DNA of 64,000 bases from an uncultured Gemmatimonadota bacterium (lineage in GTDB: Bacteria; GCA-2686955; CAYMWF01). This document shows positions 17,388 to 62,205 of this stretch, piece after piece. Every line of letters begins with the position of its first letter. Position 1 is the stretch's first letter. Made by a program: the position numbers and the translations under genes. The stretch lies in the NCBI GenBank assembly GCA_964394085.1, contig CAYMWF010000002.1, positions 48,051 to 112,050 of the forward strand, in the 5' to 3' direction. The notes beneath the pieces are model-generated. The model ran no database searches and was not told where the DNA came from. It worked only from the letters and a program-made list of their open reading frames with translations.

Positions 17388-17402
17388 GGTGGGTATATTC
17401 TC

Positions 17403-17479
17403 TGGAGCGGGCAACGGGACTCGAACCCGCGACAACTAGCTTGGGAAGCTAGAACTCTACCAACTGAGTTATGCCCGCC
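17403..17479 (-). tRNA. tRNA-Gly (anticodon CCC), CCA encoded
   Basis: Minus-strand read: GCGGGCA acceptor, D-arm ACTCAGTTGGTAGAGT, anticodon stem-loop CTAGC-TTCCCAA-GCTAG, T-arm GCGGGTTCGAGTCCCGT, 3' TGCCCGC-T-CCA. The acceptor stem is a perfect 7 bp. Confidence 0.85.
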
Positions 17480-36204: not shown

Positions 36205-36340
36205 CGGGCCCTCCCGCTCCTGACGAATCCAATCAACCCAGTCTAACATCCATCAACACCTAGATACCGCCCTTCAATCATGAATTCAAACTCCAACATT
36301 GTGCCATGTAAAAGGTTGCGCCCTTTTTGTAAACTTTATT

Positions 36341-36368
36341 TAAAGAATTGCGTCGAGCTCTCCGATAT
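36341..36368 (+). promoter_or_regulatory. Putative sigma-28 (FliA/SigD)-type promoter upstream of flagellin 1
   Basis: TAAAG-N17-CCGATAT versus the consensus TAAA-N15-GCCGATAT. The roughly 120-nt leader is rich in GGA motifs, including the SD AAGGAGGAUGGA. Confidence 0.35.
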
Positions 36369-36491
36369 GGATTGAGAAGTTGGACGACTGCAAGGAAAAA
36401 ATGCAGATAAAGGGGGTGAAGAACCAATAGTTTTTGATAGGGCAAGGACGCCCGAAGCGACTTACACGCAACCCATCAAGGAGGATGGACG

Positions 36492-38210
36492 ATGTCACTG
36501 AAAATAATGCATAACATCTCGTCGATTAACGCGTACGGGAACCTTCTGAAAACGGAATCCCGTCTATCGACGAACCTCCAGAGGTTATCCTCTGGTTTGA
36601 GAATCAACAGCGCCGCCGACGATCCGGCGGGTCTGTCGATCTCACAGCGTTTCCGCGCACAGATCGCAGGTCTCGGCCAGGCGGTTGAAAATGCGGAAAA
36701 CGCGATTTCCATGGTTCAGACGGCAGAGGGTGCCCTGAACGAGGTTCACAATCTTCTGACGACAATGAGAGAGCTGGCGGTTCATGCTGCCAATGAAGGC
36801 TTGAATGACTCAGTTATGCTCGCTGCGGATCAGCAGCAGATCGAATCGGCTCTCGAGTCGATCGACCGGATCGCCGATACGACCCAATTCGGCACCAAGG
36901 TGCTGCTCAACGGAGCCAACGACAATCTCGTGGCGATAACCACGAACAGCTCCGATATCGAAGCATTCGGCGCAAGCGAGCTTTCAGCCGGCTACCATTA
37001 TATTACCGTAGACAGCGTGGTGGATGCGGACCAGTGGATCAACAATCAGGATCTTGGGTTGATGGATCCGGCCAGTGTGTCCGGACTTGCAGCAGGAGAT
37101 CACGTAATCACCGTAATTCAAGAATCGGACAGCGCTGAGTACTACAGTGATGACATCACGGGTTCGGTTCAGATTATAGCCGGTAACAACGATGATTTCA
37201 TCGTACAGCTCGACGGCGGTTCGGCCATGACCGTGACCATCGCCACCGGTACCTACGCAACCGTCGCGGCTCTTGCAGCGGCTGTTGAAACCGCGGTAGA
37301 CACCGCTCTCGCAGCCGGCGGTTACTCGACAAGCGAAATAACCGTTTCCGCCAGCGATAACAAACTGCTATTCACCTCCGCCGATCATGGATCGGAAAGC
37401 TCGATCTTAATCGGCGATTCCGGGGTGACAACCACTTCAGCCTTAGAAGATCTTATGCTGGGCTCGGGAGTGGAGGTCGGTCAGGATGCGATAGTGACCC
37501 TTGACAACTTCGAAAACCGCCTTTCTGTGGTAGACAATGCTACTGACTCTTCCGCGACCCTCTATGACTCGGACGGCAACTCGGTCTGGTTCAGCATTGG
37601 GGACACTTCGGAAGGAATCGATCTCGGCACTACAATCCTCACCGTTCAGGCCAAACAGTTCCTGGCCAGTATCGATGGAGGTCCGAAATCCCGATTCTCC
37701 GCAGACGTTCAGGGCACCATCCAGAACGGTTCGGACAAGCTGGAGGTCACCTTCGGCTCCGATGTGACAGCGGGAACTTCCAATGTAAAAGTTTCGGATA
37801 ACTCGCTTCTGTTCCAGATCGGGGGTAATGAAGATCAAACGGTTTCACTTTCGCTTGCCAGTATGGCATCTTCCCAGCTGGGGCAGATAAACAACAAGCT
37901 TTCGACTATCGATGTGACAAGCACATCCGGAGCGAATACGGCGATAATGATTATCGATGCCGCCACATCCCAGGTCTCGACCGAACGTTCCAAGCTTGGA
38001 GCTTTCCAGATCAACGTTCTAGAAAGCACGCTGAATTCTCTGAGGGTATCCGAAGAGAACCTCCAGGCAGCGGAAGCGACTTTGAGGGATACGGACTTCG
38101 CGGTGGAGATGGCGGAATTCACCAAGAACCAGATCCTGCAGCAGTCAGGTATCGCGATTCTCGCGCAGGCGAATGCGAACCCACAGGTAGTGCTCTCCCT
38201 CATCGGGTAG
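36492..38210 (+). CDS. fliC: Flagellin (572 aa, large variable central domain)
   Basis: AAGGAGGA RBS. Conserved N-terminus LQRLSSGLRINSAADDPAGLSISQRF and C-terminus QNQILQQSGIAILAQANANPQVVLSLIG. Confidence 0.9.
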   Translation: MSLKIMHNISSINAYGNLLKTESRLSTNLQRLSSGLRINSAADDPAGLSISQRFRAQIAGLGQAVENAENAISMVQTAEGALNEVHNLLTTMRELAVHAANEGLNDSVMLAADQQQIESALESIDRIADTTQFGTKVLLNGANDNLVAITTNSSDIEAFGASELSAGYHYITVDSVVDADQWINNQDLGLMDPASVSGLAAGDHVITVIQESDSAEYYSDDITGSVQIIAGNNDDFIVQLDGGSAMTVTIATGTYATVAALAAAVETAVDTALAAGGYSTSEITVSASDNKLLFTSADHGSESSILIGDSGVTTTSALEDLMLGSGVEVGQDAIVTLDNFENRLSVVDNATDSSATLYDSDGNSVWFSIGDTSEGIDLGTTILTVQAKQFLASIDGGPKSRFSADVQGTIQNGSDKLEVTFGSDVTAGTSNVKVSDNSLLFQIGGNEDQTVSLSLASMASSQLGQINNKLSTIDVTSTSGANTAIMIIDAATSQVSTERSKLGAFQINVLESTLNSLRVSEENLQAAEATLRDTDFAVEMAEFTKNQILQQSGIAILAQANANPQVVLSLIG

Positions 38211-38230
38211 TAATAGATACCTGCCGGTTA

Positions 38231-38252
38231 CCCCGGGAGATGACTCCCGGGG
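38231..38252 (+). terminator. GC-rich perfect hairpin (9-bp stem, 4-nt loop) just downstream of flagellin 1; no U-tract
   Basis: CCCCGGGAG-ATGA-CTCCCGGGG. Confidence 0.35.
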
Positions 38253-38285
38253 CCCGGCCGGAGAGCGCAACACGAGGTTAGCGAA

Positions 38286-38669
38286 ATGATTACAGGCGGA
38301 AAAATACCAGACTCAACTGCAGGCGCAGCCGCCTTGCCGGCAGTCGAGTGGACGCATCCGAAAAGGGCGAAAGCTCCTCCGGTGCAAAAACCGACCACCG
38401 ACAAGCCTGTAGTCGAGAATGAAGCAAAACAAAAAAACCTGATCGATAAGGCGGAGAATCTACAATTATCGGATCAAGTGAAAAGGTATCTCGGGGCAGT
38501 CGGAAGAAAACTCAGTTTCTCACTTCACGAACCAACGGGTCAGATGATTGTAAGGATCATCAACCGTGAAACCGATGAAGTAATCAGGGAAATACCGATG
38601 GAGGAATTTCTCGAAATCGAAGCGCAAATCAAAGAGTCGATTAAGAATTTCCTCGATGTGCTCGCGTGA
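38286..38669 (+). CDS. flaG: Flagellar protein FlaG
   Basis: The C-terminal half MIVRIINRETDEVIREIPMEEFLEIEAQIKE matches the FlaG family core. Position is between flagellin and fliS. Confidence 0.6.
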   Translation: MITGGKIPDSTAGAAALPAVEWTHPKRAKAPPVQKPTTDKPVVENEAKQKNLIDKAENLQLSDQVKRYLGAVGRKLSFSLHEPTGQMIVRIINRETDEVIREIPMEEFLEIEAQIKESIKNFLDVLA

Positions 38670-38683
38670 TACAGGAGTATGAC

Positions 38684-39127
38684 ATGTCGCCCCAGAATGG
38701 TTACGGCGTCTACAAGTTGACCAAAGTAAATACAGCGTCCAGAAATGACCTGGTGCTGATGCTCTTCGATGGTCTGCTCGTTTTCCTGGAAAATGTTTTG
38801 GACGCCTTAACCGATGGGGACGCCGCCGGGGTGGAGGAATACTGCACCAGGAGCAGAAGAATCCTGGTTGAGCTTCTTTCTTCGCTCCATCCTGAATCAG
38901 GAGGTGAAATAGCGAACAACCTTCAGACCCTTTATCTCTTCTGCCTTCGTCAGTTGATAGAGGTGTCGCTCAAGAAAGATCACCAGCAGGTGAAAGATGT
39001 AATCTCTATAATTTCCCAATTAAGGGATGGCTGGATCGGGATGGAGGAATCGGATGATCAAGAAGAGGAATCGCTCGAACCAGTCGAATCACCTGCATTA
39101 GCCGATATAGTTGAAGCTGTAGGATAA
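38684..39127 (+). CDS. fliS: Flagellar export chaperone FliS
   Basis: DLVLMLFDGLLVFLENV matches the FliS LVxMLYDGAIxxL motif. ATG at 38684 has an AGGAG RBS; the track ORF begins with GTG at 38666, overlapping the flaG stop. Confidence 0.75.
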   Translation: MSPQNGYGVYKLTKVNTASRNDLVLMLFDGLLVFLENVLDALTDGDAAGVEEYCTRSRRILVELLSSLHPESGGEIANNLQTLYLFCLRQLIEVSLKKDHQQVKDVISIISQLRDGWIGMEESDDQEEESLEPVESPALADIVEAVG

Positions 39128-39150
39128 TTAGCAAGCTGAAAAGCGGAAAA

Positions 39151-39179
39151 CCGGCAGTCGGATGAAAACCGCCTGCCGG
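39151..39179 (+). terminator. Hairpin between fliS and flgM (11-bp stem with 1 mismatch, 7-nt loop); no U-tract
   Basis: CCGGCAGTCGG-ATGAAAA-CCGCCTGCCGG. Confidence 0.3.
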
Positions 39180-39199
39180 GCAATCACCAGGAGATTGGT

Positions 39200-39508
39200 G
39201 TGGGTATCAACGAAATTGCCGGGTTTCCCCCGGCGGGAAAATCGGAAAAGCCCGGCCGAATAGAGGATGGCGCAAAACCGGACACCGGTAAAAAATGCGC
39301 TGCCGGCGGCAGCATCGAGGCCGCGGCTGATTCATCCTTCGAGGGGCGCAAACAGGTTGAGGAGCTTTTGTCCAAGCTCCCTGATCAGGACATGGTGCGC
39401 CAGGAGAAGGTTGAAGAAATCCGTGAAAAAATCAGGGATGGTTTTTATGACGATCCGACTATCGTTGAGAGAGTCGCCGAATTTCTGACTTCCATTCTTG
39501 GACGATAG
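39200..39508 (+). CDS. flgM: Anti-sigma-28 factor FlgM-like (GTG start)
   Basis: The C-terminus VRQEKVEEIREKIRDGFYDDPTIVERVAEFL resembles the FlgM sigma-28-binding helices. AGGAG RBS 7 nt upstream of GTG. Confidence 0.6.
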   Translation: MGINEIAGFPPAGKSEKPGRIEDGAKPDTGKKCAAGGSIEAAADSSFEGRKQVEELLSKLPDQDMVRQEKVEEIREKIRDGFYDDPTIVERVAEFLTSILGR

Positions 39509-39699
39509 GCAAGTTTTTCCCTCCGCCTGCAGGGTTGCAGGTATTATTTTCCTTTCACACCACCCCTCCCATCGCCCCATCTTGCTGTATAATAACGACT
39601 TAGGAACTTGCCGCAAATGGTACGCCCCTTGCAAAACTATCTCCACAACTCGGTGTTTCTTAAAAGGAAACTCAAAACCGAACGGCAGGAGTGTGCGAA

Positions 39700-41415
39700 A
39701 TGGCGGTAACTATCAGGCAGAACCTTGCAGCAAGGTTCACATTAAAACATTTGGCGGATACCCAGCGGAAACTGGCGACATCCTTCGAGCGTCTTTCTTC
39801 CGGATATAAGATAAACAGAGCGTCAGATGATGCTGCGGGACTTGCACTCTCACAGAGAATCCGCGGGAGGATTTCAGGACTCAATCAGGCAGCTGACAAT
39901 TCCGAACTAGGAATCTCCATGCTTCGGGCGGCGGAATCCTCGCTGGCCGAAATTAATGCAATCCTGTTGCGAATGAGAGAGCTTGCGCTCCATGCCATGA
40001 ATGCCGGACCGAATGATGAATCGATGCTGGCCGCCGATCAGGCAGAAATATCCGCCTGCCTGGAAGGGATCGACAGGATAACGGCTGAAACCAGATTCGG
40101 TGACAAGCATCTGCTGGACGGAAGCAAGGCAAATATCATTTCAGTCAAAGAAAATGTGTCCGGCATCGTCGGCTCGACGAACAGCACGCTCTCAGAAGGA
40201 ACTCACGAGATCGATGTTTCGAACTGGATTGCTGCAAACCAGAGCATCAACAATCTCGATCTTGGATTGTCACAACCGATATTCCCGCATGGGCTTGCTG
40301 CCGGAGACCACACCATTTCAGTAATCCAGGAATCAGATTCAACGTATTTCGAGAGTGGCGTTCTTTACTTTGATGAACCCCTCGTTCTTACGGACGGAAT
40401 CAATGATCGATTCTATTTCTCTCTGGACGCCGCAGATCCTGTTACCGTGGATCTGGTCGCCGGAGGAGCAGTCACTTTCTCAGATCTGGATTCGCTGGCA
40501 ACGGTTGTGGAAGCGGCGGTGAAATCAGCTCTCGGGGGCGACCCGGATGATGAAATCCGTGTGACGGCGACGGAAGAGGGTGCTCTCCAATTTAAAACAA
40601 CGGATCACGGCACTGAGAGTTCTATCACGATTTCCGACTCCGACCTAGACGATTCAGCCTTAGCGGATCTGCATCTGGATTCGGGGACCGAATATGGGAA
40701 AAATGCGATAATAACACTGGATAATTTCGAAAATATCGTCAGCAACGTCGACAATCTTACTCCTTCTGAGATCGAGCTCAGGGACAAAGATAATAACGAT
40801 ATCACCTTCCAGATAGGAGACAGCTCAACCGGCATCAAGGCCGGTACTGCGGTGCTTACTATCAATCCTGAACGATTTCTTGTCAGTTTAGATGGTGGAC
40901 CGAAATTCGAATTCGAATCAGGAGAATGGAGTACTGTGTCGAACGGAAGTGAATCGATTCGACTGCTGTTCGGGGAATATGTTGCTGAAGGAACCAACAC
41001 TCTCGATGCGAGTGAAAACGCTCTCACTTTCAATATCAATGGCGAAACGGATTTTGCATTCGAGGGTGTAAGCCCTGCCCATCTCGGCCTCAGAGAAGGC
41101 AGGCTTTCAACCATCGATCTTTCTACGGCTGAAGGTGCAGCGAGTGCGCTGGAAGCCATTGACGAAGCTAACACCCTGGTTTCATCGGAACGAGCCAGGA
41201 TGGGCGCTTTTCAAAAAAATGTGCTCGAAGTGACCTTGAATCAGCTGCTTGTCGAAATTGAAAACCTGACAGCGGCGGAATCGGTTATTCGGGATGCCGA
41301 TTTTGCATTCGAGATTGCGGAGATGACTAAGCTGCAGATCATGCAGGAGGCCGGCACGGCTGTTCTCGCACAGGCGAATATCTCGCCGCAGACAGTGCTC
41401 AGGCTCCTTTCATAA
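39700..41415 (+). CDS. fliC: Flagellin paralog 2 (about 571 aa)
   Basis: AGGAG RBS before ATG at 39700. N-terminus LSSGYKINRASDDAAGLALSQRIRG and C-terminus LQIMQEAGTAVLAQANISPQTVLRLLS. Confidence 0.9.
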   Translation: MAVTIRQNLAARFTLKHLADTQRKLATSFERLSSGYKINRASDDAAGLALSQRIRGRISGLNQAADNSELGISMLRAAESSLAEINAILLRMRELALHAMNAGPNDESMLAADQAEISACLEGIDRITAETRFGDKHLLDGSKANIISVKENVSGIVGSTNSTLSEGTHEIDVSNWIAANQSINNLDLGLSQPIFPHGLAAGDHTISVIQESDSTYFESGVLYFDEPLVLTDGINDRFYFSLDAADPVTVDLVAGGAVTFSDLDSLATVVEAAVKSALGGDPDDEIRVTATEEGALQFKTTDHGTESSITISDSDLDDSALADLHLDSGTEYGKNAIITLDNFENIVSNVDNLTPSEIELRDKDNNDITFQIGDSSTGIKAGTAVLTINPERFLVSLDGGPKFEFESGEWSTVSNGSESIRLLFGEYVAEGTNTLDASENALTFNINGETDFAFEGVSPAHLGLREGRLSTIDLSTAEGAASALEAIDEANTLVSSERARMGAFQKNVLEVTLNQLLVEIENLTAAESVIRDADFAFEIAEMTKLQIMQEAGTAVLAQANISPQTVLRLLS

Positions 41416-41436
41416 GTTTCAGGAGGTGCAGAAAAT

Positions 41437-43791
41437 ATGTGCGCACTGATGAACATCGGAGGTATCATTTCAGGGTTCGATTCGCTCAGCCTTATTGATG
41501 CCACCATCGAGATCGGACGGGCACCGATCTACCGCATGCAGGAACGACAAACCGAGATCACTGATCAGATCTCGGCGTGGCAATCCCTGAATACAAAAAT
41601 GCTCGCATTCAAAATTTCCTGCGACAGCCTCAAATCCTCTTCCTCCTGGGACGTGTTCTCCTGCACCTCTTCAGACGATGATATCCTGACCGCAGATGCG
41701 GATTCTTCAGCACCCGCGGGTCTCTATACTTTTACAGTAAACGAGCTTGCAGCCAATCATCAAATCGCATCGAATGGGTTCGCCGACTCGGATGAAACGA
41801 CAATCGGCACCGGAACATTCACGCTTGAATACGGAGAGAACCTCTCCACCGAAATCGATATTGATGAAACCAACAATACTCTGGAAGGGCTTCGCGACGC
41901 CATCAACGATACGAGTCTCAATGTCACGGCTTCAATTATTAATACCGGCAGCGGCGACACTCCCTACCAGCTGATGATTTCCAGCGATGAAACGGGCACC
42001 GAAAACCTTCTCGATTACGAAATCGATTTGGAAGGCGGCACATCTCTCTACTTTACACAGATAGGTACGGTCAACGCAGCCAGTGCATGGTTGCCCGACC
42101 CTCCTTCGTCCACCTCGAGTGTCACTTCCGGAGGTTCCTATATAGGAACAGAGGATAAAACATATACCATTACCGCCACGTCGGGCGGGACGGTCGGGAC
42201 GGACGCAATAACCCTGAGCTGGGATGATGGAACCGGCAATACCGGCACGATTACCATACCTGCGGATTACGACACGGGAGATCCCGACGAAATCACGGTT
42301 GGAGACGAAGGCCTCACCTTGACATTCGGTGCGGGCGACATCGTCGTCGATGAAAACTTCACCGTTGCCGTGGAAACCGGCGGCTTGAACACGATTCAGG
42401 AAGGCTCTGACGCAGAGATTGTTTTCGGCGGTTCCGGAGTTGGCGACAACCCGATAACGATTACGAGTTCTTCGAACACCGTAACGGATTTGATCGAGGG
42501 AGTGACCATCAATCTGCAGTCAGCAGACTCGGACAGTCCTGTTACACTTACCATAGGCCGGGACACCGAACAACTGGTAACCAACATAGAGACGATGGTA
42601 TCGAATTACAACGAGGTCATGAGCTACCTCAATGCTCAAATGTCCTACGATGAATATTATGAAACCGGTGGTGTTCTCATGGGGGACCTCACCCTTCTGA
42701 CGATACAAAATGACATGCGAAACACCATAGGTCAGAAACTTACGGGGCAAGCGGACGGATACCAGCTGCTCTCTGAAATAGGAATCACATCAACGAATAC
42801 CGGTACACTCTCAGTAGACTCTTCCACGCTGAATGAGAAGATCGGATCCGACTTCGAAAGTTTCGCCGCCATGTTCAACGAGAGCGGAAGCGCTACTGAT
42901 AACAACATCAGGTTCCTTAGCGCGGGTGCAGATACGGTCGAATCAGGTGACGGTTATTTCATCAATATTACCCGGGCCGCATCCCAGGCTTCGACCACCG
43001 GTTCCTACTTTCAACTCGATGGAAGCAACCCGGTTACAATCAACGACACCAACAACAGGATCAAAATTAAAATCGACGGCGAGTCATCAGGGGTTGTTAC
43101 TCTCTCGAACGGAACTTATACGAGCGGGGAATCCCTGGCCGCAATGATAGAAGAACAAATAGATAACAGCGGGTTGGATGACAGTGGGTTTTCCGTAGAA
43201 TGGGAAGTTGATCCAGGGGATTCTTCCCGAGGAGGCATTGAGATCAAATCGGCCAGCTATGGAAGTACATCCACCGTTGAAATAGTCAGCACTGCTTCAT
43301 CGATATACAGTGATATCGGACTGACTGCCGGCGCTTCGGCAACAGGTCAAGACGTGGCAGGCACCATAAACGGCGAATCTGCCACGGGGACCGGTAAAAT
43401 TCTGACGGGCCTGTCGGGGAACGCCACGACTGATGGGTTGTCAATCGAAGTCAACCTGACCGCCGATCAACTCACACTACAGGGCGGTTCACAGGGAAGG
43501 GTTTCTTTCACCCGGGGAATCGCGTCAGATTTTTCTGCCGACATCGACAGATTTACCGATTCGTCGACCGGTATCATCGCTTCGAAAACAGGGGGGTTAG
43601 AGAGGCAGATTGAAGTCTTCGATGAACATATCGCTCGTATCGAAGACCAGCTTGAAATAAAGAGGGATCGCCTTATAGCAAAGTATACGGCAATGGAGGA
43701 AACGATTTCAATTTTGGAATCCCAGGGTCAGATCATGTCGATGCAGCTGCTCCAGCTCACAGGGAACTCCAGCAGCTCGGGATCTTCCTAG
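41437..43791 (+). CDS. fliD: Flagellar filament cap protein FliD (hook-associated protein 2)
   Basis: AGGAGG RBS. N-terminus GFDSLSLIDATIEI...QISAWQSLNTKM and a C-terminal coiled coil ...DRLIAKYTAMEETISILESQ. 784 aa. Confidence 0.8.
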   Translation: MCALMNIGGIISGFDSLSLIDATIEIGRAPIYRMQERQTEITDQISAWQSLNTKMLAFKISCDSLKSSSSWDVFSCTSSDDDILTADADSSAPAGLYTFTVNELAANHQIASNGFADSDETTIGTGTFTLEYGENLSTEIDIDETNNTLEGLRDAINDTSLNVTASIINTGSGDTPYQLMISSDETGTENLLDYEIDLEGGTSLYFTQIGTVNAASAWLPDPPSSTSSVTSGGSYIGTEDKTYTITATSGGTVGTDAITLSWDDGTGNTGTITIPADYDTGDPDEITVGDEGLTLTFGAGDIVVDENFTVAVETGGLNTIQEGSDAEIVFGGSGVGDNPITITSSSNTVTDLIEGVTINLQSADSDSPVTLTIGRDTEQLVTNIETMVSNYNEVMSYLNAQMSYDEYYETGGVLMGDLTLLTIQNDMRNTIGQKLTGQADGYQLLSEIGITSTNTGTLSVDSSTLNEKIGSDFESFAAMFNESGSATDNNIRFLSAGADTVESGDGYFINITRAASQASTTGSYFQLDGSNPVTINDTNNRIKIKIDGESSGVVTLSNGTYTSGESLAAMIEEQIDNSGLDDSGFSVEWEVDPGDSSRGGIEIKSASYGSTSTVEIVSTASSIYSDIGLTAGASATGQDVAGTINGESATGTGKILTGLSGNATTDGLSIEVNLTADQLTLQGGSQGRVSFTRGIASDFSADIDRFTDSSTGIIASKTGGLERQIEVFDEHIARIEDQLEIKRDRLIAKYTAMEETISILESQGQIMSMQLLQLTGNSSSSGSS

Positions 43792-52971: not shown

Positions 52972-53649
52972 TCAAGAATTCTTAAGCTTCAAATCGAGTA
53001 TTGTGTTCTTGATTTCTCGAACAACCGCCTCGGCAGTGGTGCAAGCCGTCAAATCAGGTGAGGGTGCAAACCGGATTTTTACAGGCGAAGGCCTAGGAAA
53101 ACGATGCATTTTACCTAATGCTGACGCAGTACCGTGTATATAAGCTGGTATTACCGTAGGTTTGAAACGAAGATAATAATATCCTGCACCCGGATGGAAT
53201 GGAAGGAAATCCCCGCCCTCGTTCCGTGTTCCTTCCGGGAACAATCCCAGGACTTCGCCCCCTTCGAAAACCGATTTTACCTTCCGATAAGCAGAGATAT
53301 CGAACGGTTTGTTCAAGTCGATACCGAAAGCGCCGGTCCACGCCGCCAATCTGCCTGTAACCGGATATTTCATAACCTGTGTCATCGCTAAAAAACGCAC
53401 AGGCCGGGATGTTGCCAATCCGAGAATAGGGGGATCAAGAAAACTGGAGTGATTCGCCGCGATAAGAACGGAGCCCGATCGTGGAATAAATTCTGCGCCG
53501 GTCACCTCGAGCTTGAAGTAGATTCGAACAATACGGCGAAGTAGTTTCTTCCAACTTTCGTAGGAAGCCGGTAGAGGTTTGATTCGATGCTGATGGTTCA
53601 CCGGTGAATACGTCCTATCCAGCTTGATCCTGTTAAAGCGATCCCCCAC
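52972..53649 (-). CDS. plsC: 1-acyl-sn-glycerol-3-phosphate acyltransferase
   Basis: HX4D-type LIAANHSSFLDPPIL and FPEGTRNEGG. Confidence 0.75.
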   Translation of the reverse strand: MGDRFNRIKLDRTYSPVNHQHRIKPLPASYESWKKLLRRIVRIYFKLEVTGAEFIPRSGSVLIAANHSSFLDPPILGLATSRPVRFLAMTQVMKYPVTGRLAAWTGAFGIDLNKPFDISAYRKVKSVFEGGEVLGLFPEGTRNEGGDFLPFHPGAGYYYLRFKPTVIPAYIHGTASALGKMHRFPRPSPVKIRFAPSPDLTACTTAEAVVREIKNTILDLKLKNS

Positions 53650-54706
53650 AGAAATCGGTTACCAGACGGAATGAATCAGTAATTTTCATGAGCTGTCTCA
53701 TCAGAGGATCCTTGGATTCTCCGGGGGCAAAAACCGCCATATCGATCAAGTATCGTCGCGATGGCTTGTTTGAAACATCATACAGTACGATTGATTTAAA
53801 ACATCCTCCAACCATGTATTTTCGATTTTCCCATGCTCCAGCAATAGAAAAAACGTCAATTCCATTGTGTTCTTCTTCTGTAAGACGAACGGACTCTGCA
53901 ATGATAAAATCCTCGTCATAATACTTGGAAGCGATTGAATCACGGAGCGCGATCAATTCCAGGACGGATTGATGCTTTCTGGGATATTCTTCCGAATATA
54001 TGAATATCTGTAAATCCGGATCTCTTTTCCACCATCCGACAATATCCCCATCAACCGTCTTTTCCTCAAACCTCAACCTGTATCCAGCAGGTAAAGTCAA
54101 TTGCCATGGATACTTTCTGGCTATTCTTCTATTCTCCCTGATATTCATCCCCCCGAGGTAAATCCTGTCGAACATCCGCTTTTCCAGCCTATGCTCGAAA
54201 AGAGAAAATGCTTCAATTCCTTTCTCAAGGATGATTTCGGTTAACAGCGGTAGATTACGTGCAGCAAAGAAATAGACTGTTTGTCCTTGCGACCAGTAGT
54301 CTTCGATAAAGAAAGCTACTCGCCCTTTCTCGGAATAACGTTCTGCCACTTTACCGTCAAGGAATTCATCCCAAAGAGGTGACATCGATTCACTGTGTCC
54401 AGGGATGCCTGCAATTACAATATTCTTTCGCATCCGGAAGAGATCGAAGTTTCGGGCTGAGACCGGCTTCAGTATGAAGATTTTTTCTTCAATAACCCAA
54501 TTGACTTTCCGTTCTAAACTCTTTTTCAGTATCTTAATTGAACCTGCATCTAGAACATCCGCTCCAATCAGTATTATTTCTTGAAGCTTACCGGTAGCTT
54601 GAATCTTCCTTTCATCGACACACGAAACCGAGCTAAAAAGAAAAACCGTCACGGGGATAATGACGGTGAATCGAAAAAATCTAAACATTATTATACTTAA
54701 GTACAA
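53633..54706 (-). CDS. Lipoprotein of unknown function
   Basis: Signal/lipobox ...FSSVSC. About 357 aa. It sits between the HtrA-like gene and plsC. Confidence 0.4.
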   Translation of the reverse strand: MYLSIIMFRFFRFTVIIPVTVFLFSSVSCVDERKIQATGKLQEIILIGADVLDAGSIKILKKSLERKVNWVIEEKIFILKPVSARNFDLFRMRKNIVIAGIPGHSESMSPLWDEFLDGKVAERYSEKGRVAFFIEDYWSQGQTVYFFAARNLPLLTEIILEKGIEAFSLFEHRLEKRMFDRIYLGGMNIRENRRIARKYPWQLTLPAGYRLRFEEKTVDGDIVGWWKRDPDLQIFIYSEEYPRKHQSVLELIALRDSIASKYYDEDFIIAESVRLTEEEHNGIDVFSIAGAWENRKYMVGGCFKSIVLYDVSNKPSRRYLIDMAVFAPGESKDPLMRQLMKITDSFRLVTDFCGGSL

Positions 54707-54717
54707 AGTCTGAAAGA

Positions 54718-55839
54718 TTATTCATCTACAGGTTCTGCCGTGTGGGATACAGCTTGTTTCTCCTGGAGTCGTTCAATCGCATTTTCCGCCTTCCGAAGCC
54801 GGTCGCATAATTCCTGTAATTCCATGGACGGGAACCGGAATCGTTCAATATCTTGCTGCCTTACAGGTTTTACCGGTATTTCTGTAAGCTCAACTGATGT
54901 ATCAAGTTGTTTACCTTTTCTAACAATTGAGATACTTGATATACTTCCAACTTTCGAAAAAGCGACCAGATCACGGAGCTGTTTGGAGGAAGATACTTTG
55001 GCTTCTCCATAGCCTGTAATGATGTCTCCGGGTTCGAGTTCGGCTTTCTCTGCCGGGGAATTATGATCTACTGTTACTATTTCGACACCATGACCGGGAA
55101 ATGTATCAGGAATATCACGAATCACAACACCTAAGTATGCATACTTTGGGTTACGTTCATTTTTCATCCTACTGATGGAGCGCTGGAGCCTTTCACCAGG
55201 TATTGCGAAACTTATCCCCAAATTCGGCGCTGACGCTACAAGCATCCCAATTGCTTTACCTTTAATATCAAAGATAGTTGCTCCGATGGTTCCAGGCGCC
55301 ACCGGTGTGTTGATCTGTACGAGACCATCATGCTGACGGTTTCCGGACTGGATGGAAATATCAAATCCGGATACGAGCCCAAGAGAAGCGGATGTCTGAA
55401 ATCCGAACGTATTTCCGACGACAAGGACCAAATCACCTTTCTGGATATCCTCAATTGAATTCACCTTCAAGGAGGAGGAGATCTTTTTCTCGGGCTTAAG
55501 GAGAGCAAGATGAACGAATTGATCTTTTCCGAACAGAGTTGCTTTAAAACGCGTATCTCCCGAGGGGATAATGAATATGCTGTCCGCATCTTGAATTCCG
55601 TCAATGGCTGTGAGGATGAATTCTGCATTCTCTATAGAAAAACCGGTGCTTACTCGTCTCCTGATTTCTCCATTCCCAGGTAGAGTGATGTATGAGACTA
55701 TAGATACGATCGACTTTTCGTTGCCAAGAACGATCCTGTTGATTTCCGCATTCAGGCATCCCAGGCTTCCTTCCTGGCTTTGTGCTTCAGATACTCCCGA
55801 AAAAATCAGGCAAAAAAGAATAAAACAAGTCGTCATCAT
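54718..55839 (-). CDS. HtrA/DegP-family trypsin-like protein with PDZ domain; catalytic triad apparently substituted (pseudo-protease)
   Basis: S1C fold: GNTFGFQTSASLGLVSGF and VQINTPVAPGTIGATIFDIKGKAIGM. The expected YVVTNNHVV, DIALI and GNSGG positions read FILTAIDGI, VHLALL and GTIGA. The PDZ GVEIVTVDHNSPAEKAELEPGDII is retained. Confidence 0.65.
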   Translation of the reverse strand: MMTTCFILFCLIFSGVSEAQSQEGSLGCLNAEINRIVLGNEKSIVSIVSYITLPGNGEIRRRVSTGFSIENAEFILTAIDGIQDADSIFIIPSGDTRFKATLFGKDQFVHLALLKPEKKISSSLKVNSIEDIQKGDLVLVVGNTFGFQTSASLGLVSGFDISIQSGNRQHDGLVQINTPVAPGTIGATIFDIKGKAIGMLVASAPNLGISFAIPGERLQRSISRMKNERNPKYAYLGVVIRDIPDTFPGHGVEIVTVDHNSPAEKAELEPGDIITGYGEAKVSSSKQLRDLVAFSKVGSISSISIVRKGKQLDTSVELTEIPVKPVRQQDIERFRFPSMELQELCDRLRKAENAIERLQEKQAVSHTAEPVDE

Positions 55840-55875
55840 TAACAGGTACTCCGATTCGATAAGTCCCAGGAAACC

Positions 55876-56427
55876 TTAGAAGCCATAACTGGTCTGTAAA
55901 ATTTGGACTTCATTGTTGGTGACATCCCACCTTCCCTGATTCGTCTGGTCTAGAATCCGAGCGTTTCCGACCATCCACTCGATATCTGAATCTCTCTCAG
56001 AGCTTATAGTATTCCAAACACGTTCTGGACGAGGAAGCATATATTCACTTACCTTGCGGACATGCTCAGGAATTCCTGTTAGTAAATACTGGAATCCATT
56101 TTCCGGTATTCCTATCGGTTGAACGAAAAGAAGTAACAGGGTTACAGTTGCAGCCGCATATGCAATACGAGGAAGAGGAATTAACAGTGGTGATCGGTCA
56201 GGCTTCTCCTGGATACGCTGCATCAGTTTTGCTGCAAAGAATGGCGGTGCTTTGATTTCAGGCATTGCCTGCACCATTTTTATGGTTTTAGTGAATTTTT
56301 CGTATTCAGAGTGACACTCACGACAATCTGAAAAATGCTTTCGTGAAAAAACGTCATCGGAACCGTCGATCATTGCACTGAATGATTCTCGAACGCGGCG
56401 GCACTCCTCTTTAATTTCTCGCCTCAT
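55876..56427 (-). CDS. Membrane-anchored anti-sigma factor (zinc-binding ZAS-type)
   Basis: HFSDCRECH fits HxxxCxxC. A single TM segment IAYAAATVTLLLLFV. Lies 4 nt downstream of the ECF sigma gene. Confidence 0.6.
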   Translation of the reverse strand: MRREIKEECRRVRESFSAMIDGSDDVFSRKHFSDCRECHSEYEKFTKTIKMVQAMPEIKAPPFFAAKLMQRIQEKPDRSPLLIPLPRIAYAAATVTLLLLFVQPIGIPENGFQYLLTGIPEHVRKVSEYMLPRPERVWNTISSERDSDIEWMVGNARILDQTNQGRWDVTNNEVQILQTSYGF

Positions 56428-56431
56428 CCCG

Positions 56432-57043
56432 TTATTGCTCCAAGTACGGGCTGAACAACCCTTTGAATTTGTTTCTCGCCCTATTGACTCGCGACTTTAC
56501 CGTTCCTTCAGGTTTATCGAGGATTCGCGCTATTTCTTCATATGACAAACCCTGGATGTCTCTCATAACTAATACCAGCTTGAATTTGGGCGGAAGTATA
56601 TCAATGGTAGCCTGGATTCTTTCTCTCATTTCTCTTCGTAGTAGATCTTCATCGGGCCCGGGGTTTGAATCTGGGAATTCAATCTTGATATCATCGCCTT
56701 TATCGGTTGTATAGGGTTTGTCCAATTGTAGAAAGGATACAATTTTTTTTCTGCGCAACTGGTTTATCGAGAGGTTTGTCGCAATTCTGTACAACCACGT
56801 TGAGAAAACCGAACCTCTTTTAAAAGTATGGGCTTTCGAAAAAACTCTGAGAAAAGTTTCTTGAGCGATATCCTCGGCTAACTCCCTGTTCCCCAGCATT
56901 CTAGAGATATAATGCATTATTTTGTGTTGATACCTGTGTACCAATTCCTCGTATGCATCAACATCCCCATTCTTCGTCCGCTCGATCAGGGACTCATCAC
57001 TTTCAACAACCCCGTTTTCCCCGTCTTGATCAAGCCTGTTCAT
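56432..57043 (-). CDS. ECF-subfamily RNA polymerase sigma factor (sigma-24-like)
   Basis: Region 2 ETFLRVFSKAHTFKRGSVFSTWLYRIATNLSINQLR and region 4 LSYEEIARILDKPEGTVKSRVNRAR. Start chosen at ATG 57041-57043 (GGTGGTG RBS); the track ORF starts at 57112. Confidence 0.8.
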   Translation of the reverse strand: MNRLDQDGENGVVESDESLIERTKNGDVDAYEELVHRYQHKIMHYISRMLGNRELAEDIAQETFLRVFSKAHTFKRGSVFSTWLYRIATNLSINQLRRKKIVSFLQLDKPYTTDKGDDIKIEFPDSNPGPDEDLLRREMRERIQATIDILPPKFKLVLVMRDIQGLSYEEIARILDKPEGTVKSRVNRARNKFKGLFSPYLEQ

Positions 57044-57244
57044 TACACCACCATACATACAGATAACCGCCAGCCCGGTTCCACCTTTCTCCAAAATAAT
57101 CAACTGCAGCATTCCGTGTCAAGCAGTCACACGTCATACAAGTGTCGAAGGTTTACTGGTTAATAAAGTTAGTACTATTCAATTCCAGCCAAACTGCGAA
57201 AAATTAGGATTCGATGCACTAACTACTCTAAACAAATCAAAGGA

Positions 57245-57286
57245 ATGAAAAAAGAACCGGCTCTTCGATTTAGTCAAGAGCCGGCT
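57245..57286 (-). terminator. Rho-independent terminator downstream of lipoprotein gene 57307-58131
   Basis: Minus-strand read: AGCCGGCUCUU-GACUAAAUCG-AAGAGCCGG, a 9-bp stem, followed by UUCUUUUUUCAUUC. Confidence 0.55.
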
Positions 57287-57306
57287 CGCTGGAATGGTGA
57301 TTCAAT

Positions 57307-58131
57307 CTATTCGATCCAATAAGGCATACCCCAAGCGGAGGCTGAATAGGGTGCATCCCTTTCAATCACAGTATCCTCGTCGATTACATCCAGGAATGTG
57401 TGGTATACGCCCGGAGTTGTAGGGGCTGAGTAAGTGTTGCTGAAAACAAGGTCCTCCGACGTCGGCTCCAGTATTTTGTGTTCTTTTTCATTATTCGCTG
57501 TCAAGCGATGAATAATGGGGATGATTGTAGGATCGCTGACCGTGACTGTTACCGTAACTTCCTCTCCTGGAGCAAAGGTAAGAACTTGACGTTCCCAATA
57601 CCTTTCTGGATCGTTAAAATTGACTGTTCCGATACTCGCAGCAGATACGCTGATTTCGTTGATCGACAACCGTTCATCGAGCGAGGACCCGGCAAGTACC
57701 GTTATTTCAACCACTTCCCATCCGCCAAACCTCCCGAATCTACCATTTTTAGCGAGAAGTATTTTTCGAGTTCCAAAATCGTTGTTTATTGTTTTCTCAA
57801 CAACCGTGGAATCATTGTACATAACATAAAAACTGCCGTCGAATTCATACTCCACTATAGCATCCGCGGAATTACCCATGACGGTCAGATCAAGCCTGGT
57901 TATTTTCGAATTCTCATCGTAATCGCGCTTGAAAGACAGGTAATCTTCTTCTCCTGAAATACCTTCATCCATGCTCATCAAGGATAAACCGGCAATAAAG
58001 CCTTTTTCATTCAACATGTTCCAGATTTGCTCTTCATCCCTCTGAGCTGATGGTGAGATAATACAACCTGATGCACATAGAATCGCCAGACATGTAGTCA
58101 GGGAAGTAATCTTTTTCAGTTTGTTCTCCAT
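57307..58131 (-). CDS. Lipoprotein of unknown function
   Basis: Start at ATG 58129-58131 with a GGAGGAG RBS. Signal and lipobox LCASGC. Confidence 0.4.
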   Translation of the reverse strand: MENKLKKITSLTTCLAILCASGCIISPSAQRDEEQIWNMLNEKGFIAGLSLMSMDEGISGEEDYLSFKRDYDENSKITRLDLTVMGNSADAIVEYEFDGSFYVMYNDSTVVEKTINNDFGTRKILLAKNGRFGRFGGWEVVEITVLAGSSLDERLSINEISVSAASIGTVNFNDPERYWERQVLTFAPGEEVTVTVTVSDPTIIPIIHRLTANNEKEHKILEPTSEDLVFSNTYSAPTTPGVYHTFLDVIDEDTVIERDAPYSASAWGMPYWIE

Positions 58132-58255
58132 AAAACTCCTCCGAGCTTCCCGAGATCCCGAAAGGATTTTATGCAACTTCTATGCCATATGCTTATATAT
58201 ATATTGGGGGGATTTTTACCGGCAAATGTCCATTTCTAGGGACAATTTTCGGGGA

Positions 58256-59735: not shown

Positions 59736-60139
59736 TCCATTATGTTGTAATGCCTGGGATTTGAGAGTATCCCGATCAAATCCCTGAGATCTTTGAATTC
59801 TTCAATACTGTCTTCATCACGCTTTACAAGAACGTTTTCTTGGATCAATTGTGATACAATTTCACCAATATCGGAAGAGGTAGATATTCCCCAACGTTCG
59901 ATGACCAGCCCAGCCATCAATCCGAAGCGCTCGAATGCCAATCCAATGAAGCCGTCAATGAGTTCACCGGCGTTTAAATGTCTGGTTTCCGGTAAACGCG
60001 CTACCGTTAATGTCAAAGCTTCCGCCAGAAAAAGATATGCCTCCGGAGAATATCGATCTTCTTTCATCCGGATACGTCTGATTACTGCTTTCCATTCGTC
60101 CAGCATATCTGCCATTTCAATCCTTCTCGATGTTTTCAA
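59732..60139 (-). CDS. Small soluble helical protein, unknown function
   Basis: 135 aa with no TM segment. 4-nt overlap with the DUF62 gene. Confidence 0.3.
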   Translation of the reverse strand: MKTSRRIEMADMLDEWKAVIRRIRMKEDRYSPEAYLFLAEALTLTVARLPETRHLNAGELIDGFIGLAFERFGLMAGLVIERWGISTSSDIGEIVSQLIQENVLVKRDEDSIEEFKDLRDLIGILSNPRHYNIME

Positions 60140-61715
60140 AATACCTGAGCCCCGGCCAGTTAAAAACGAAACTCCTTATTGGAGAAAAATAGTGTGCTGT
60201 ACCAATCGATATCGCCGGGGTTGATTCCGCACCAAACGGGAAGACCAGATCGATCCTGAGCGTTGTCACACCCAAATTTTCCATGTCTCCCAGTCTCAGC
60301 CCCAATCCGAGGGCAGTTCCAAACCGCGCGATGTCCCCTGACCAGGAGGTGCCCATATCAAAGAACGGAACGAAAAGCACTCTAGATAGCTTTCCTTTCC
60401 GGAAAATCAGCAGCCTTTCTTCAATATTAACACGGATCATTGAATCGCCATTGAAAAAATGTGGCGGATATCCTCTCAACCCATTCAATCCGCCCAATGA
60501 AAATTCTCCAGGTCCCCGAAGGTTATCGGATCGATAATATTCTGCTTTAAAAACCAGAGTATTGACATTTTTGTGCTTAATGAAACCTGCAATTTCAGCC
60601 GAATCCAGGAGCTCTCGTGACGAGTTATCCTTGAATGAAAAGAAACCGGATTTTTCATATGACAATGTCAGATAATGCCGGCTCCCCTGAAAGGCGGTAA
60701 AAAAAGAACCTGCAGCATATCCTACCTTATGATTGTGTTCCAGAAAATCCGAGCCAGCACCAATCGTCAGTCCTAGATTCCATCCCGTCGCCACCTCCTC
60801 AATGGCACCGAGTTTGTCTATGAGCTTTCGTTTCGAATAAACATAATCATTAAACGTTGTATTGAAGAAAAAAATACAGGTATTGGCTTCCAATGCGACT
60901 TCTTCATCTTCCCATGTTGTGTGATTAAAGTCGCATCCCGCAGTCAATCGAAATAACGGGTCGGGAACACCGGAAATATAAAAACACGATGCATCACTTT
61001 CACGGATCCATTCTTCCTGGATCACGTTTTCCAGGTAGTTGAAACAGGGTGAAATACTCTTTGAAGATCTTAATCCCAGGGAAAACCGATCTTCGTCGAA
61101 CAGGTAGGGTCGCCACAACTGGAGGTACCATGTTCCGATATGATCACCAGAAAAACCTACCCCTGCAGCTATAGCGCCTCTAGTTCCCAGCACACGGGGT
61201 TCAGCAATTTCTGACAGTCCGGAAAAAACTCCATCCTTCCTGGCTATTCCTGCACCTAGTGTTACCCTTCGCCCTAAAAGATTGATTTCGCGGAACCCCA
61301 CTGAAAAATCCAGTTGTTCCTTAGTGTAATTGAAATAAACAGGGATAAAAGTGGACCACTTGTCAACAGTCGTCAATGATATATTCATACCATCTGTAGA
61401 GATTCTGCAAGTGTCGATTCTGACTTCTGAAAATATTCCCAACCTGCGAAGGTGAGATTCTCTTTCTCTCATCTTATCGACAGTAAAAAGATCTCCGGGT
61501 TTGAATCCGAATTCTCTGCGGACGATATCTTCATCAGTCACGGAATGAAGTTCATTGATGAAGTCGAGAACCGGATCATAATTATACTTCAATTTATAAT
61601 CGAAAATGTTCGATCGCTCGATCTCTATACTGTCAATGATGGTTGTTGAGGCGGTACCCGCTGAAAAAACGACCACTGCAGGAAGAACCGATAAAAGCAG
61701 AGCAAACTTTAGCAT
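60117..61715 (-). CDS. Omp85-family outer membrane protein (POTRA + beta-barrel; BamA/TamA/ShlB-like)
   Basis: Signal peptide MLKFALLLSVLPAVVVFSAG. The POTRA-like segment is IVRREFGFKPGDLFTVDKMRERESHLRRLGIFSEVRI. The C-terminal region has a beta-strand pattern. Confidence 0.5.
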   Translation of the reverse strand: MLKFALLLSVLPAVVVFSAGTASTTIIDSIEIERSNIFDYKLKYNYDPVLDFINELHSVTDEDIVRREFGFKPGDLFTVDKMRERESHLRRLGIFSEVRIDTCRISTDGMNISLTTVDKWSTFIPVYFNYTKEQLDFSVGFREINLLGRRVTLGAGIARKDGVFSGLSEIAEPRVLGTRGAIAAGVGFSGDHIGTWYLQLWRPYLFDEDRFSLGLRSSKSISPCFNYLENVIQEEWIRESDASCFYISGVPDPLFRLTAGCDFNHTTWEDEEVALEANTCIFFFNTTFNDYVYSKRKLIDKLGAIEEVATGWNLGLTIGAGSDFLEHNHKVGYAAGSFFTAFQGSRHYLTLSYEKSGFFSFKDNSSRELLDSAEIAGFIKHKNVNTLVFKAEYYRSDNLRGPGEFSLGGLNGLRGYPPHFFNGDSMIRVNIEERLLIFRKGKLSRVLFVPFFDMGTSWSGDIARFGTALGLGLRLGDMENLGVTTLRIDLVFPFGAESTPAISIGTAHYFSPIRSFVFNWPGLRYFENIEKD

Positions 61716-61734
61716 AATACAGCTTTCCGCTGTT

Positions 61735-62205
61735 TTACCGGGAATAGGGAAGCCCCTTGGTGATGGTGAGCGCGCGATATAGTTGTTCAAGTAAAATAAT
61801 CCTGGCCAACTCATGGGGAAATGTCAATAAAGATAACGATAATACAGTGTCTGAATCTTCGATTACAGCGGTTGACAGTCCCTCTTTACCCCCGAGTAAG
61901 AACTGAAGAGGGTGATTTCCTGAATCCAATCGTCTATCGAGCCATCTACTGAATTCCATGCTGTTATACGTCTTGCCGGAACAATCCAGAGAGATCCTGT
62001 GACCTGCCTTGCGACGGTAATAATCGGCAAGCCGCTCCCCTTCAATCAGACGGATTGCATTATGCGACTTCTTTTGTCCTCCGCCAGCCTTAATCTCAAC
62101 AAGATCGAACGAAATAAAACCAGATATCATCCGGAGATATTTCTCCTGGGGGATTCTCCATATTGGAGAAATTCTTCCAACGGCTATTAGCTCGATTAAT
62201 GCCAT
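61735..62205 (-). CDS. rlmH: 23S rRNA (pseudouridine1915-N3)-methyltransferase RlmH (SPOUT)
   Basis: MALIELIAVGRISPIW...LLGGKEGLS...LSLSLLTFPHELARIILLEQLYRA. ATG at 62203-62205; the track ORF starts at an upstream TTG. Confidence 0.8.
   Translation of the reverse strand: MALIELIAVGRISPIWRIPQEKYLRMISGFISFDLVEIKAGGGQKKSHNAIRLIEGERLADYYRRKAGHRISLDCSGKTYNSMEFSRWLDRRLDSGNHPLQFLLGGKEGLSTAVIEDSDTVLSLSLLTFPHELARIILLEQLYRALTITKGLPYSR

Follow-up and report, generated by a model that had tools for sequence, protein, structure and literature searches.

A catalytically inactive HtrA homolog encoded beside an ECF sigma/anti-sigma pair in an uncultured marine bacterium, a candidate co-regulator of anti-sigma proteolysis

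The sensing of outer-membrane damage by the DegS–RseA and AlgW–MucA systems is textbook knowledge: the cascade is set off by an active HtrA enzyme, and RseB shields RseA from site-1 cleavage. HtrA proteins work as trimers and higher oligomers, and the one well-studied bacterial HtrA pseudoprotease is, to our knowledge, MamO of magnetotactic bacteria. In Escherichia coli (rpoE-rseA-rseB-rseC, with DegS) and Pseudomonas aeruginosa (algU-mucA-mucB, with AlgW and MucE), a sigma factor of the extracytoplasmic function (ECF) type is encoded together with a single-pass anti-sigma factor and a periplasmic accessory protein. The anti-sigma factor is under regulated proteolysis and the PDZ domain of the HtrA reads aromatic-x-Phe tails, DegS recognizing YxF on outer-membrane proteins (OMPs) and AlgW recognizing WVF on MucE (PMC8103513, PMC8545111). 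Here we describe a locus for which we propose a parallel. It lies in a 64,000-nucleotide stretch of an uncultured Gemmatimonadota bacterium (assembly GCA_964394085.1, contig CAYMWF010000002.1, positions 48,051 to 112,050), hereafter the window, and encodes an ECF sigma factor, a single-pass anti-sigma factor and an HtrA homolog in which all three catalytic residues have been replaced (pseudo-HtrA).

The three open reading frames (ORFs) are on the minus strand, in the order and at the coordinates first given for them: a 203-aa group 4 ECF sigma factor (56432–57043), a 183-aa anti-sigma factor (55876–56427) and the 373-aa pseudo-HtrA (54718–55839), which is predicted to be secreted. They form a tight series with a gene for a DUF4837 protein (53633–54706; PF16125, E = 2e-20), with gaps of 4 nt between the sigma and anti-sigma genes, 36 nt between the anti-sigma gene and the HtrA-like ORF, and 11 nt between that ORF and the DUF4837 gene. 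The dead HtrA thus stands in the operon position of rseB or mucB; the likeness is one of gene position and proposed role, not of ancestry, and the protein matches only trypsin and PDZ families and not MucB_RseB. Other differences from the described systems are that the YxF-type tail, which is found on OMPs and (as WVF) on MucE, is here on the anti-sigma factor itself, and that this anti-sigma factor, unlike RseA and MucA, has the HxxxCxxC motif.

The original prediction had likened the locus to sigE-rseA-htrA envelope-stress modules, and the comparison is apt for the gene order but not for the proteins. Mycobacterium tuberculosis RseA is a soluble cytoplasmic protein, and we know of no PDZ-ligand tail described for it. 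The M. tuberculosis locus (sigE / rseA-htrA-tatB), the nearest such arrangement on record, has the same order of sigma factor, HxxxCxxC anti-sigma factor and HtrA-family gene (PMC10027907), but its HtrA is an active, essential protease, where the protein described here is dead. Its anti-sigma gene and htrA are co-transcribed, an arrangement whose meaning has been called unclear, and RseA is subject to redox control and to phosphorylation-dependent degradation by ClpC1P2 (PMC10027907).

The pseudo-HtrA has a chymotrypsin-fold domain that matches Trypsin_2 (PF13365, E = 5.5e-12) and a PDZ domain that matches PDZ_2 (PF13180, E = 5e-14). It falls below the cut-offs of the Do-family model TIGR02037 (156.5 bits, cut-off 416.2), the DegS model TIGR02038 (88 bits, cut-off 423; a single PDZ is present and the triad is lost) and the MamO model NF040961 (22 bits, cut-off 800). 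The proposed substitution of all three triad positions was borne out when the protein was aligned residue by residue (phmmer) with HtrAs of solved structure, Helicobacter pylori HtrA among them, and by MAFFT and hmmalign multiple alignments. The His site is D80 (ILTAIDGI, compared with IVTNNHVI), the Asp site is H110 (FVHLALL, compared with ESDLAVI) and the Ser site is I185 (PGTIGA, compared with PGNSGG). This register is unambiguous because invariant anchors (T77, G104, D106, LLK, P182-G183 and G186) flank each position. A shifted or alternative triad was considered and rejected: residue 184, beside the Ser site, reads T/A/T, so that no substitute nucleophile is conserved, no shifted triad was found, and the wider clade has no other conserved His/Asp/Ser set. 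By comparison, H-D-S is present in 137 of the 150 best matches drawn from 1.84 billion library representatives. Judged from its sequence, the protein cannot act as a serine protease. Another protein with a degenerate triad (P0271) bears the JGI source name ‘serine protease Do’, an annotation error that is likely to recur; the name is misapplied to such proteins, which by the same reading would not be able to be serine proteases.

The structural motifs around the triad positions and the PDZ domain are retained, as had also been noted at first reading. The AlphaFold model (mean pLDDT 88, pTM 0.77) is a confident prediction of an HtrA fold, and its best Foldseek matches are DegQ, DegP, DegS, MucD and AlgW (probability 1.0, target-normalised TM-score at most 0.82). 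With the canonical DegP, DegQ and DegS (MEROPS S1C) the pseudo-HtrA shares this fold, the order of protease domain then PDZ, and the PDZ carboxylate-binding loop; in contrast to them it has lost His, Asp and Ser alike, and their QTD reads QIN. The long LA loop of DegP and DegQ is missing, there is one PDZ, and a conserved C-terminal amphipathic helix (341–367) takes the place of PDZ2. The carboxylate-binding loop, Y-L-G-V, is kept, with L236, G237 and V238 invariant even in comparison with active HtrAs. DegS has an N-terminal membrane anchor, whereas the pseudo-HtrA begins with a short h-region followed by SEA/QSQ; this has the look of a cleavable signal peptide, which would place the protein in the periplasm.

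Two relatives of the pseudo-HtrA, 70% (P0002) and 46% (P0003) identical to it, show that the gene is maintained. The three lineages have D/E-H-I at the triad positions, and 137 of 373 positions are invariant among them. Against the 70% ortholog the ratio of nonsynonymous to synonymous substitution rates (dN/dS) is 0.11, compared with 0.05–0.14 for neighbouring genes; these values are rough, since dS is saturated, yet far below 1. Marine metagenomes, TARA and JGI 3300009128 among them, are the source of the contig, and the locus was found in identical form in at least four independent assemblies, which rules out an assembly error. A decaying pseudogene or sequencing artefact might be suspected from the loss of all three catalytic residues and from a score far under the family cut-off, but it is refuted by the conservation data and to our mind has next to no chance of being correct: all three lineages and the independent assemblies carry an unbroken ORF, the gene is under purifying selection, and the fold is predicted with confidence. 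The family appears to be rare. An exhaustive HMMER search returned only two clusters at 50% identity, after which the score falls from 670 to 186 bits, and no member came up when the GTDB species representatives were scanned with an alignment of the family.

Beyond the original prediction, we found that the window protein belongs to a wider group of dead HtrAs linked to sigma factors, that the anti-sigma factor has a YxF-type tail of its own, and that in two lineages an intact HtrA is encoded next to the dead one. Degenerate triads occur in 13 of the 150 best library matches, and genomic context was read for a subset. An ECF sigma factor and an HxxxCxxC anti-sigma factor are encoded directly upstream of P0238 (triad S-N-M, locus L093), P0127 (Q-D-T, L094) and P0134 (V-Q-S, L176), and an HxxxCxxC anti-sigma factor is encoded directly upstream of P0123 (S-S-L, L092; single transmembrane (TM) segment) and P0145 (A-G-T, L175). 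In L175 the contig ends in a 50-residue gene fragment before the anti-sigma gene, and this fragment was left without assignment. Across eight loci from five independent groups, the degenerate HtrA always lies 7–71 nt 3' of the gene for a single-TM anti-sigma factor with HxxxCxxC (8/8), and an ECF sigma gene precedes the anti-sigma gene wherever the contig extends far enough. A later homolog search added just two close relatives of P0238.

As a control, we scanned metagenomes with four degenerate members and recovered 80 loci, almost all with intact HtrAs. No HxxxCxxC anti-sigma gene was found upstream of an intact HtrA at the 52 control loci where the sequence reaches 700 nt or more upstream, and an ECF sigma gene of any kind lay within 2 kb of 2 of 82 intact-triad HtrA ORFs. 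The linkage (5/5 independent degenerate groups, compared with 0/52 intact loci) is significant (Fisher p = 2.4e-7). Two degenerate HtrAs that keep IQTDA (P0124 and P0265) have no adjoining sigma/anti-sigma pair.

The linked proteins also share sequence features. In all members of the group, G-x-x-Q-(I/M/T/V)-(T/N) replaces the FIQTD of intact HtrAs, and in all but P0134 G-x-VSG replaces GIVSA; the window protein has D-H-I and GLVQINT, with the tail SYGF on its anti-sigma factor. In a neighbour-joining tree, 11 sigma-linked proteins form one group that excludes intact and unlinked degenerate HtrAs, with bootstrap values of 32% when all 11 are counted, 50% when P0134 is left out and 76% for the grouping of the window family with P0155. 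The shared motifs and the shared context speak independently of each other for a common origin of the group.

The variety of triads bears on a possible reuse of the old active site, in which Asp80 and His110 (with Ile185) would make up a novel centre for metal binding or catalysis and the protein would be a new sort of enzyme or metal sensor. In all three lineages of the window family the His position is acidic and the Asp position is a His, and MamO shows that HtrA scaffolds can gain metal sites (PMC4794232). The wider group, however, has S-K-S, S-S-L, S-N-M, Q-D-T, A-G-T and V-Q-S at these positions, with no common chemistry; the metal site of MamO is elsewhere on the fold, and the Asp/His swap may do no more than preserve a hydrogen bond in the interior. 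We consider a new active site very improbable, since the swap is specific to the window family and the triad positions vary from one member of the group to another.

The anti-sigma factor consists of a cytoplasmic N-terminal domain with the H-x3-C-x2-C motif of ZAS (zf-HC2, class I) anti-sigma factors (H31, C35 and C38, invariant in three orthologs), one TM segment (approximately residues 88–106, Kyte–Doolittle mean 1.81) and a periplasmic part of about 75 aa that ends in QTSYGF-COOH. It has no Pfam match at E ≤ 0.01 and weak NCBIfam anti-sigma/RsrA matches (21 and 18 bits); zf-HC2 (PF13490) is faint in the ortholog from locus L003 and clear in the anti-sigma factors of L094, L175 and L176. 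A single-sequence AlphaFold model (pLDDT 37) was too poor for use. The three orthologs are 30–57% identical overall, yet the tail Q-x-S-Y-x-F is invariant (QTSYGF, QTSYGF and QASYDF). This tail resembles the OMP tails bound by the PDZ domains of DegS and AlgW, which makes the anti-sigma factor, in addition to misfolded OMPs, a candidate PDZ ligand.

Tails of this kind recur in the wider group, where the anti-sigma factors of the eight loci end in SYGF, SYGF, SYDF, LVDF, LVSF, DFCY, SRSY and VLNL. The last residue is hydrophobic in 5/5 groups, compared with 19% of 722 background ORFs (p = 2.6e-4), and aromatic in 4/5 groups, compared with 5% (p = 3e-5); a hydrophobic-x-hydrophobic end is likewise found in 4/5 groups, compared with 6% (p = 6e-5). 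In two of the lineages, the gene directly after the dead HtrA (L093:6668-8242 and L094:6516-8057) encodes a second HtrA that is anchored in the membrane at its N-terminus and has two PDZ domains and all three triad residues (TNEH or TNAH, TDLA, GNSGG), which is a plausible candidate for a DegS-like site-1 protease.

For a conserved protein tied to a sigma/anti-sigma pair, the best reading is the non-catalytic sensor or adaptor role first suggested for the pseudo-HtrA. In the form that we favour, and to which we give slightly less than an even chance, the 373-aa protein serves the adjoining sigma/anti-sigma pair as a dedicated accessory and acts in the periplasm, without catalysis, as a co-regulator of the proteolysis of the anti-sigma factor. 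The PDZ domain, with its intact Y-L-G-V loop, would bind the S-Y-x-F-COOH tail on the periplasmic segment of the anti-sigma factor, and this binding would gate regulated proteolysis of the anti-sigma factor. The pseudo-HtrA might shield the tail and the cleavage site until unassembled OMP C-termini displace it, or it might present the anti-sigma factor to a catalytically active HtrA-type site-1 protease. The freed sigma factor would then switch on its regulon, its own operon included. There is precedent for an HtrA that acts without catalysis, as the pseudoprotease MamO promotes the activity of its partner MamE (PMC4794232).

Several points weigh against such a role. We infer the PDZ–tail contact, as we do its direction (protection or presentation), the inducing signal and the autoregulatory promoter described below. 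Co-transcription with the sigma factor fits a simple regulon member equally well. The five groups were picked by their resemblance to the query and are not a random sample, and in the three closest lineages the gene order is conserved across the region, so that adjacency in that family alone tells us little. Bootstrap values for monophyly are weak (32–50%) and long-branch attraction is possible. Of the tails, SRSY has no hydrophobic residue at -2, and another group ends in Leu instead of an aromatic residue. Finally, a check for intact paralogs in the 64-kb window found no second or active HtrA, and the window has no RseP or Prc gene.

The most serious competitor is that the dead HtrA is an effector of the regulon, a protease-free chaperone or holdase that acts on unfolded envelope proteins, is induced with the sigma factor under stress and takes no part in anti-sigma control. 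HtrA proteins such as DegP remain active as chaperones when the active-site serine is mutated. The pseudo-HtrA retains the substrate-binding fold and the PDZ, and the spacing of the genes is operon-like; M. tuberculosis htrA, moreover, is co-transcribed with rseA and has no known regulatory role (PMC10027907). What an effector leaves unexplained is the enrichment of PDZ-ligand-like ends on the anti-sigma factors and the intact HtrA encoded after the dead protein in L093 and L094, and it gives no reason for dead HtrAs to be linked to sigma factors in this sample when intact ones are not. We take this to be a real possibility, albeit a somewhat unlikely one.

The intact HtrAs of L093 and L094 speak for a different arrangement, in which the dead HtrA co-assembles with, or allosterically activates, an active HtrA paralog that would be the true site-1 protease, and it is the PDZ of that paralog that reads the tail. 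Such mixed assembly would suit the oligomeric habit of HtrAs. MamO offers a model, since it promotes MamE-dependent proteolysis and does not need its own triad to do so; like the pseudo-HtrA it has an HtrA/trypsin-2 scaffold with a degenerate triad, and its active partner has a counterpart in the second HtrA of the two lineages (PMC4794232). MamO differs in its TauE fusion, its surface di-histidine metal site, its place in the magnetosome island and its lack of a sigma/anti-sigma link (PMC4794232); the pseudo-HtrA has no TauE domain and the 64-kb window has no magnetosome genes. Against an activator of this type, no active HtrA adjoins the dead one in the window, L001, L003 or L176, hetero-oligomerisation is only presumed, and the PDZ binding loop of the dead protein is itself intact. 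We therefore think it unlikely.

Returning to co-regulation through the pseudo-HtrA's own PDZ, a more specific version can be put forward as speculation, with little probability attached to it: an undescribed envelope-stress switch in several uncultured lineages, in which the OMP-mimicking tail of the anti-sigma factor is a tethered ligand held by the PDZ of the dead HtrA, and unassembled OMP tails, as they accumulate, would compete for that PDZ and so expose the anti-sigma factor to an active HtrA or a tail-specific protease. If true, the switch would sense by decoy or competition and turn the logic of DegS around, with the ligand releasing a clamp instead of activating an enzyme.

In the HtrAs assembled here, catalysis has been lost in several ways, and the fold, the PDZ and the place beside a sigma/anti-sigma pair have been kept. 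If the PDZ–tail contact is real, a protease scaffold can be converted to a pure binding or sensing module in signalling, and a PDZ ligand can be part of the anti-sigma factor itself. Pseudoenzymes would then be recurrent in bacterial stress signalling, and the group would make up a second well-defined class of bacterial HtrA pseudoproteases beside MamO. The literature that we searched, in which the supplements of the ECF reclassification were not covered, contained no dead HtrA beside a sigma/anti-sigma pair and no anti-sigma factor with a YxF tail. The window locus is one branch of a recurrent module in uncultured bacteria that is apparently undescribed.

The sigma factor matches Sigma70_r2 (E = 3e-19), Sigma70_r4_2 (E = 4e-16) and Sigma70_ECF, and it scores 109 bits with TIGR02937, over a cut-off of 42.9; its best NCBIfam matches are SigW/RpoE-like and below the equivalog cut-offs. 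It has the features of ECF group 4, with sigma-2 and sigma-4 domains only, a length of about 200 aa and an anti-sigma gene directly downstream. Orthologs are 82% identical in L001 and 68% identical in L003, with a dN/dS of 0.05. The start of the 203-aa protein (57043) is better than that of the 226-aa ORF (57112) because conserved promoter-like elements fall inside the longer ORF. The first of these, a sigma-70-like promoter candidate (57093–57122, minus strand), reads TTGACA-N18-TATTTT and was found by consensus scan (10/12 matches); CTTGACA-N18-TAnnTT is kept in the window, L001 and L003, with CTTGACA invariant in the alignment of the three lineages. The second (57057–57082, minus strand), (T)GGAACC-N16-(C/T)GTAT, resembles ECF promoters of the GGAAC/CGT type, and GGAACC is invariant and exactly 39 nt before the sigma ATG in all three. 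At the level of consensus matching, the two elements fit a housekeeping promoter and an ECF-type autoregulatory promoter. The call of the candidate autoregulatory promoter is uncertain because the element is very close to the start codon. In a search for the regulon, GGAACC-N14-18-GTAT turned up once more in the window (at 31051), which is at chance level (0.39 expected), and nowhere besides the sigma promoter in L001 and L003. The GGAACC-type motif is not clearly common to the sigma genes of the GC-rich loci.

Upstream of these elements, a hairpin with a U-tract (57245–57287, minus strand), like that of an intrinsic terminator, closes a lipoprotein-like gene and sets it apart from the new transcription unit that begins here. 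Its predicted RNA fold has -21.9 kcal/mol (z = -4.9; 0 of 200 shuffles equally stable), and the hairpin is kept in L001. The gene that it closes (57307–58176, minus strand) is an ORF of 289 aa whose N-terminus resembles that of a lipoprotein (…ILCASGC…) and which matches nothing in Pfam or NCBIfam; it is kept 5' of the sigma gene in L001 (74% identity) and L003 (49%), with the terminator hairpin between.

A GGAG stands 10 nt 5' of the pseudo-HtrA ATG. The anti-sigma and pseudo-HtrA ORFs share a reading frame in the window (54718–56427, minus strand), L001:9422-11122 and L003:9425-11101, with 588, 579 and 576 nt between the starts and with one stop codon and 8–12 more codons between the ORFs. 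Read-through of the stop codon from anti-sigma factor to pseudo-HtrA was dismissed: the pair in L093 is out of frame and the agreement of three related lineages is not significant, and the shared frame is probably a coincidence.

Downstream, the DUF4837 gene is followed in the same series by genes for an acyltransferase and a TPR protein and by accB/accC. It also lies 3' of the pseudo-HtrA gene in L001 and L003, and in L091 it comes after the related pseudo-HtrA P0155; it may belong to the pseudo-HtrA operon, with a putative functional link. P0155 (S-K-S, with the serine kept; from an organism of 56% GC) is encoded in L091:66-2994, where the upstream region is cut by the contig end, and is followed by DUF4837 and acyltransferase genes in the same order as in the window. 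HtrA–DUF4837–acyltransferase may be an older conserved block; DUF4837 is without known function.

The host is a flagellated diderm, as the window encodes LolA, an Omp85/POTRA protein, two flagellins and FliD. The Omp85-like protein (565 aa; 60117–61814, minus strand) has one weak POTRA match and the same neighbourhood in L001 and L003; it is an outer-membrane biogenesis gene near an envelope-stress-type module. A flagellar filament cluster (34504–43791, plus strand) contains a glycosyltransferase–TPR fusion (34504–36204), two flagellins of unusual length (572 and 574 aa) and a FliD of 784 aa, and it is inside a stretch at approximately 30–44 kb with a GC content of 0.50–0.54, compared with 0.43–0.48 elsewhere, and a positive AT skew. 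A radical-SAM/DUF512 protein with an N-terminal PDZ is encoded at 15978–17478 (minus strand); its true start is probably further downstream than that of the longest ORF, since the latter overlaps tRNA-Gly(CCC) at 17403–17478. MutS (24369–26975, minus strand) is at most approximately 50% identical to the best 80 of more than 600 matches among the GTDB species representatives, and these best 80 are scattered over Nitrospirota, Latescibacterota, Gemmatimonadota, Zixibacteria and others; from these comparisons the host has the appearance of a deep lineage with few representatives.

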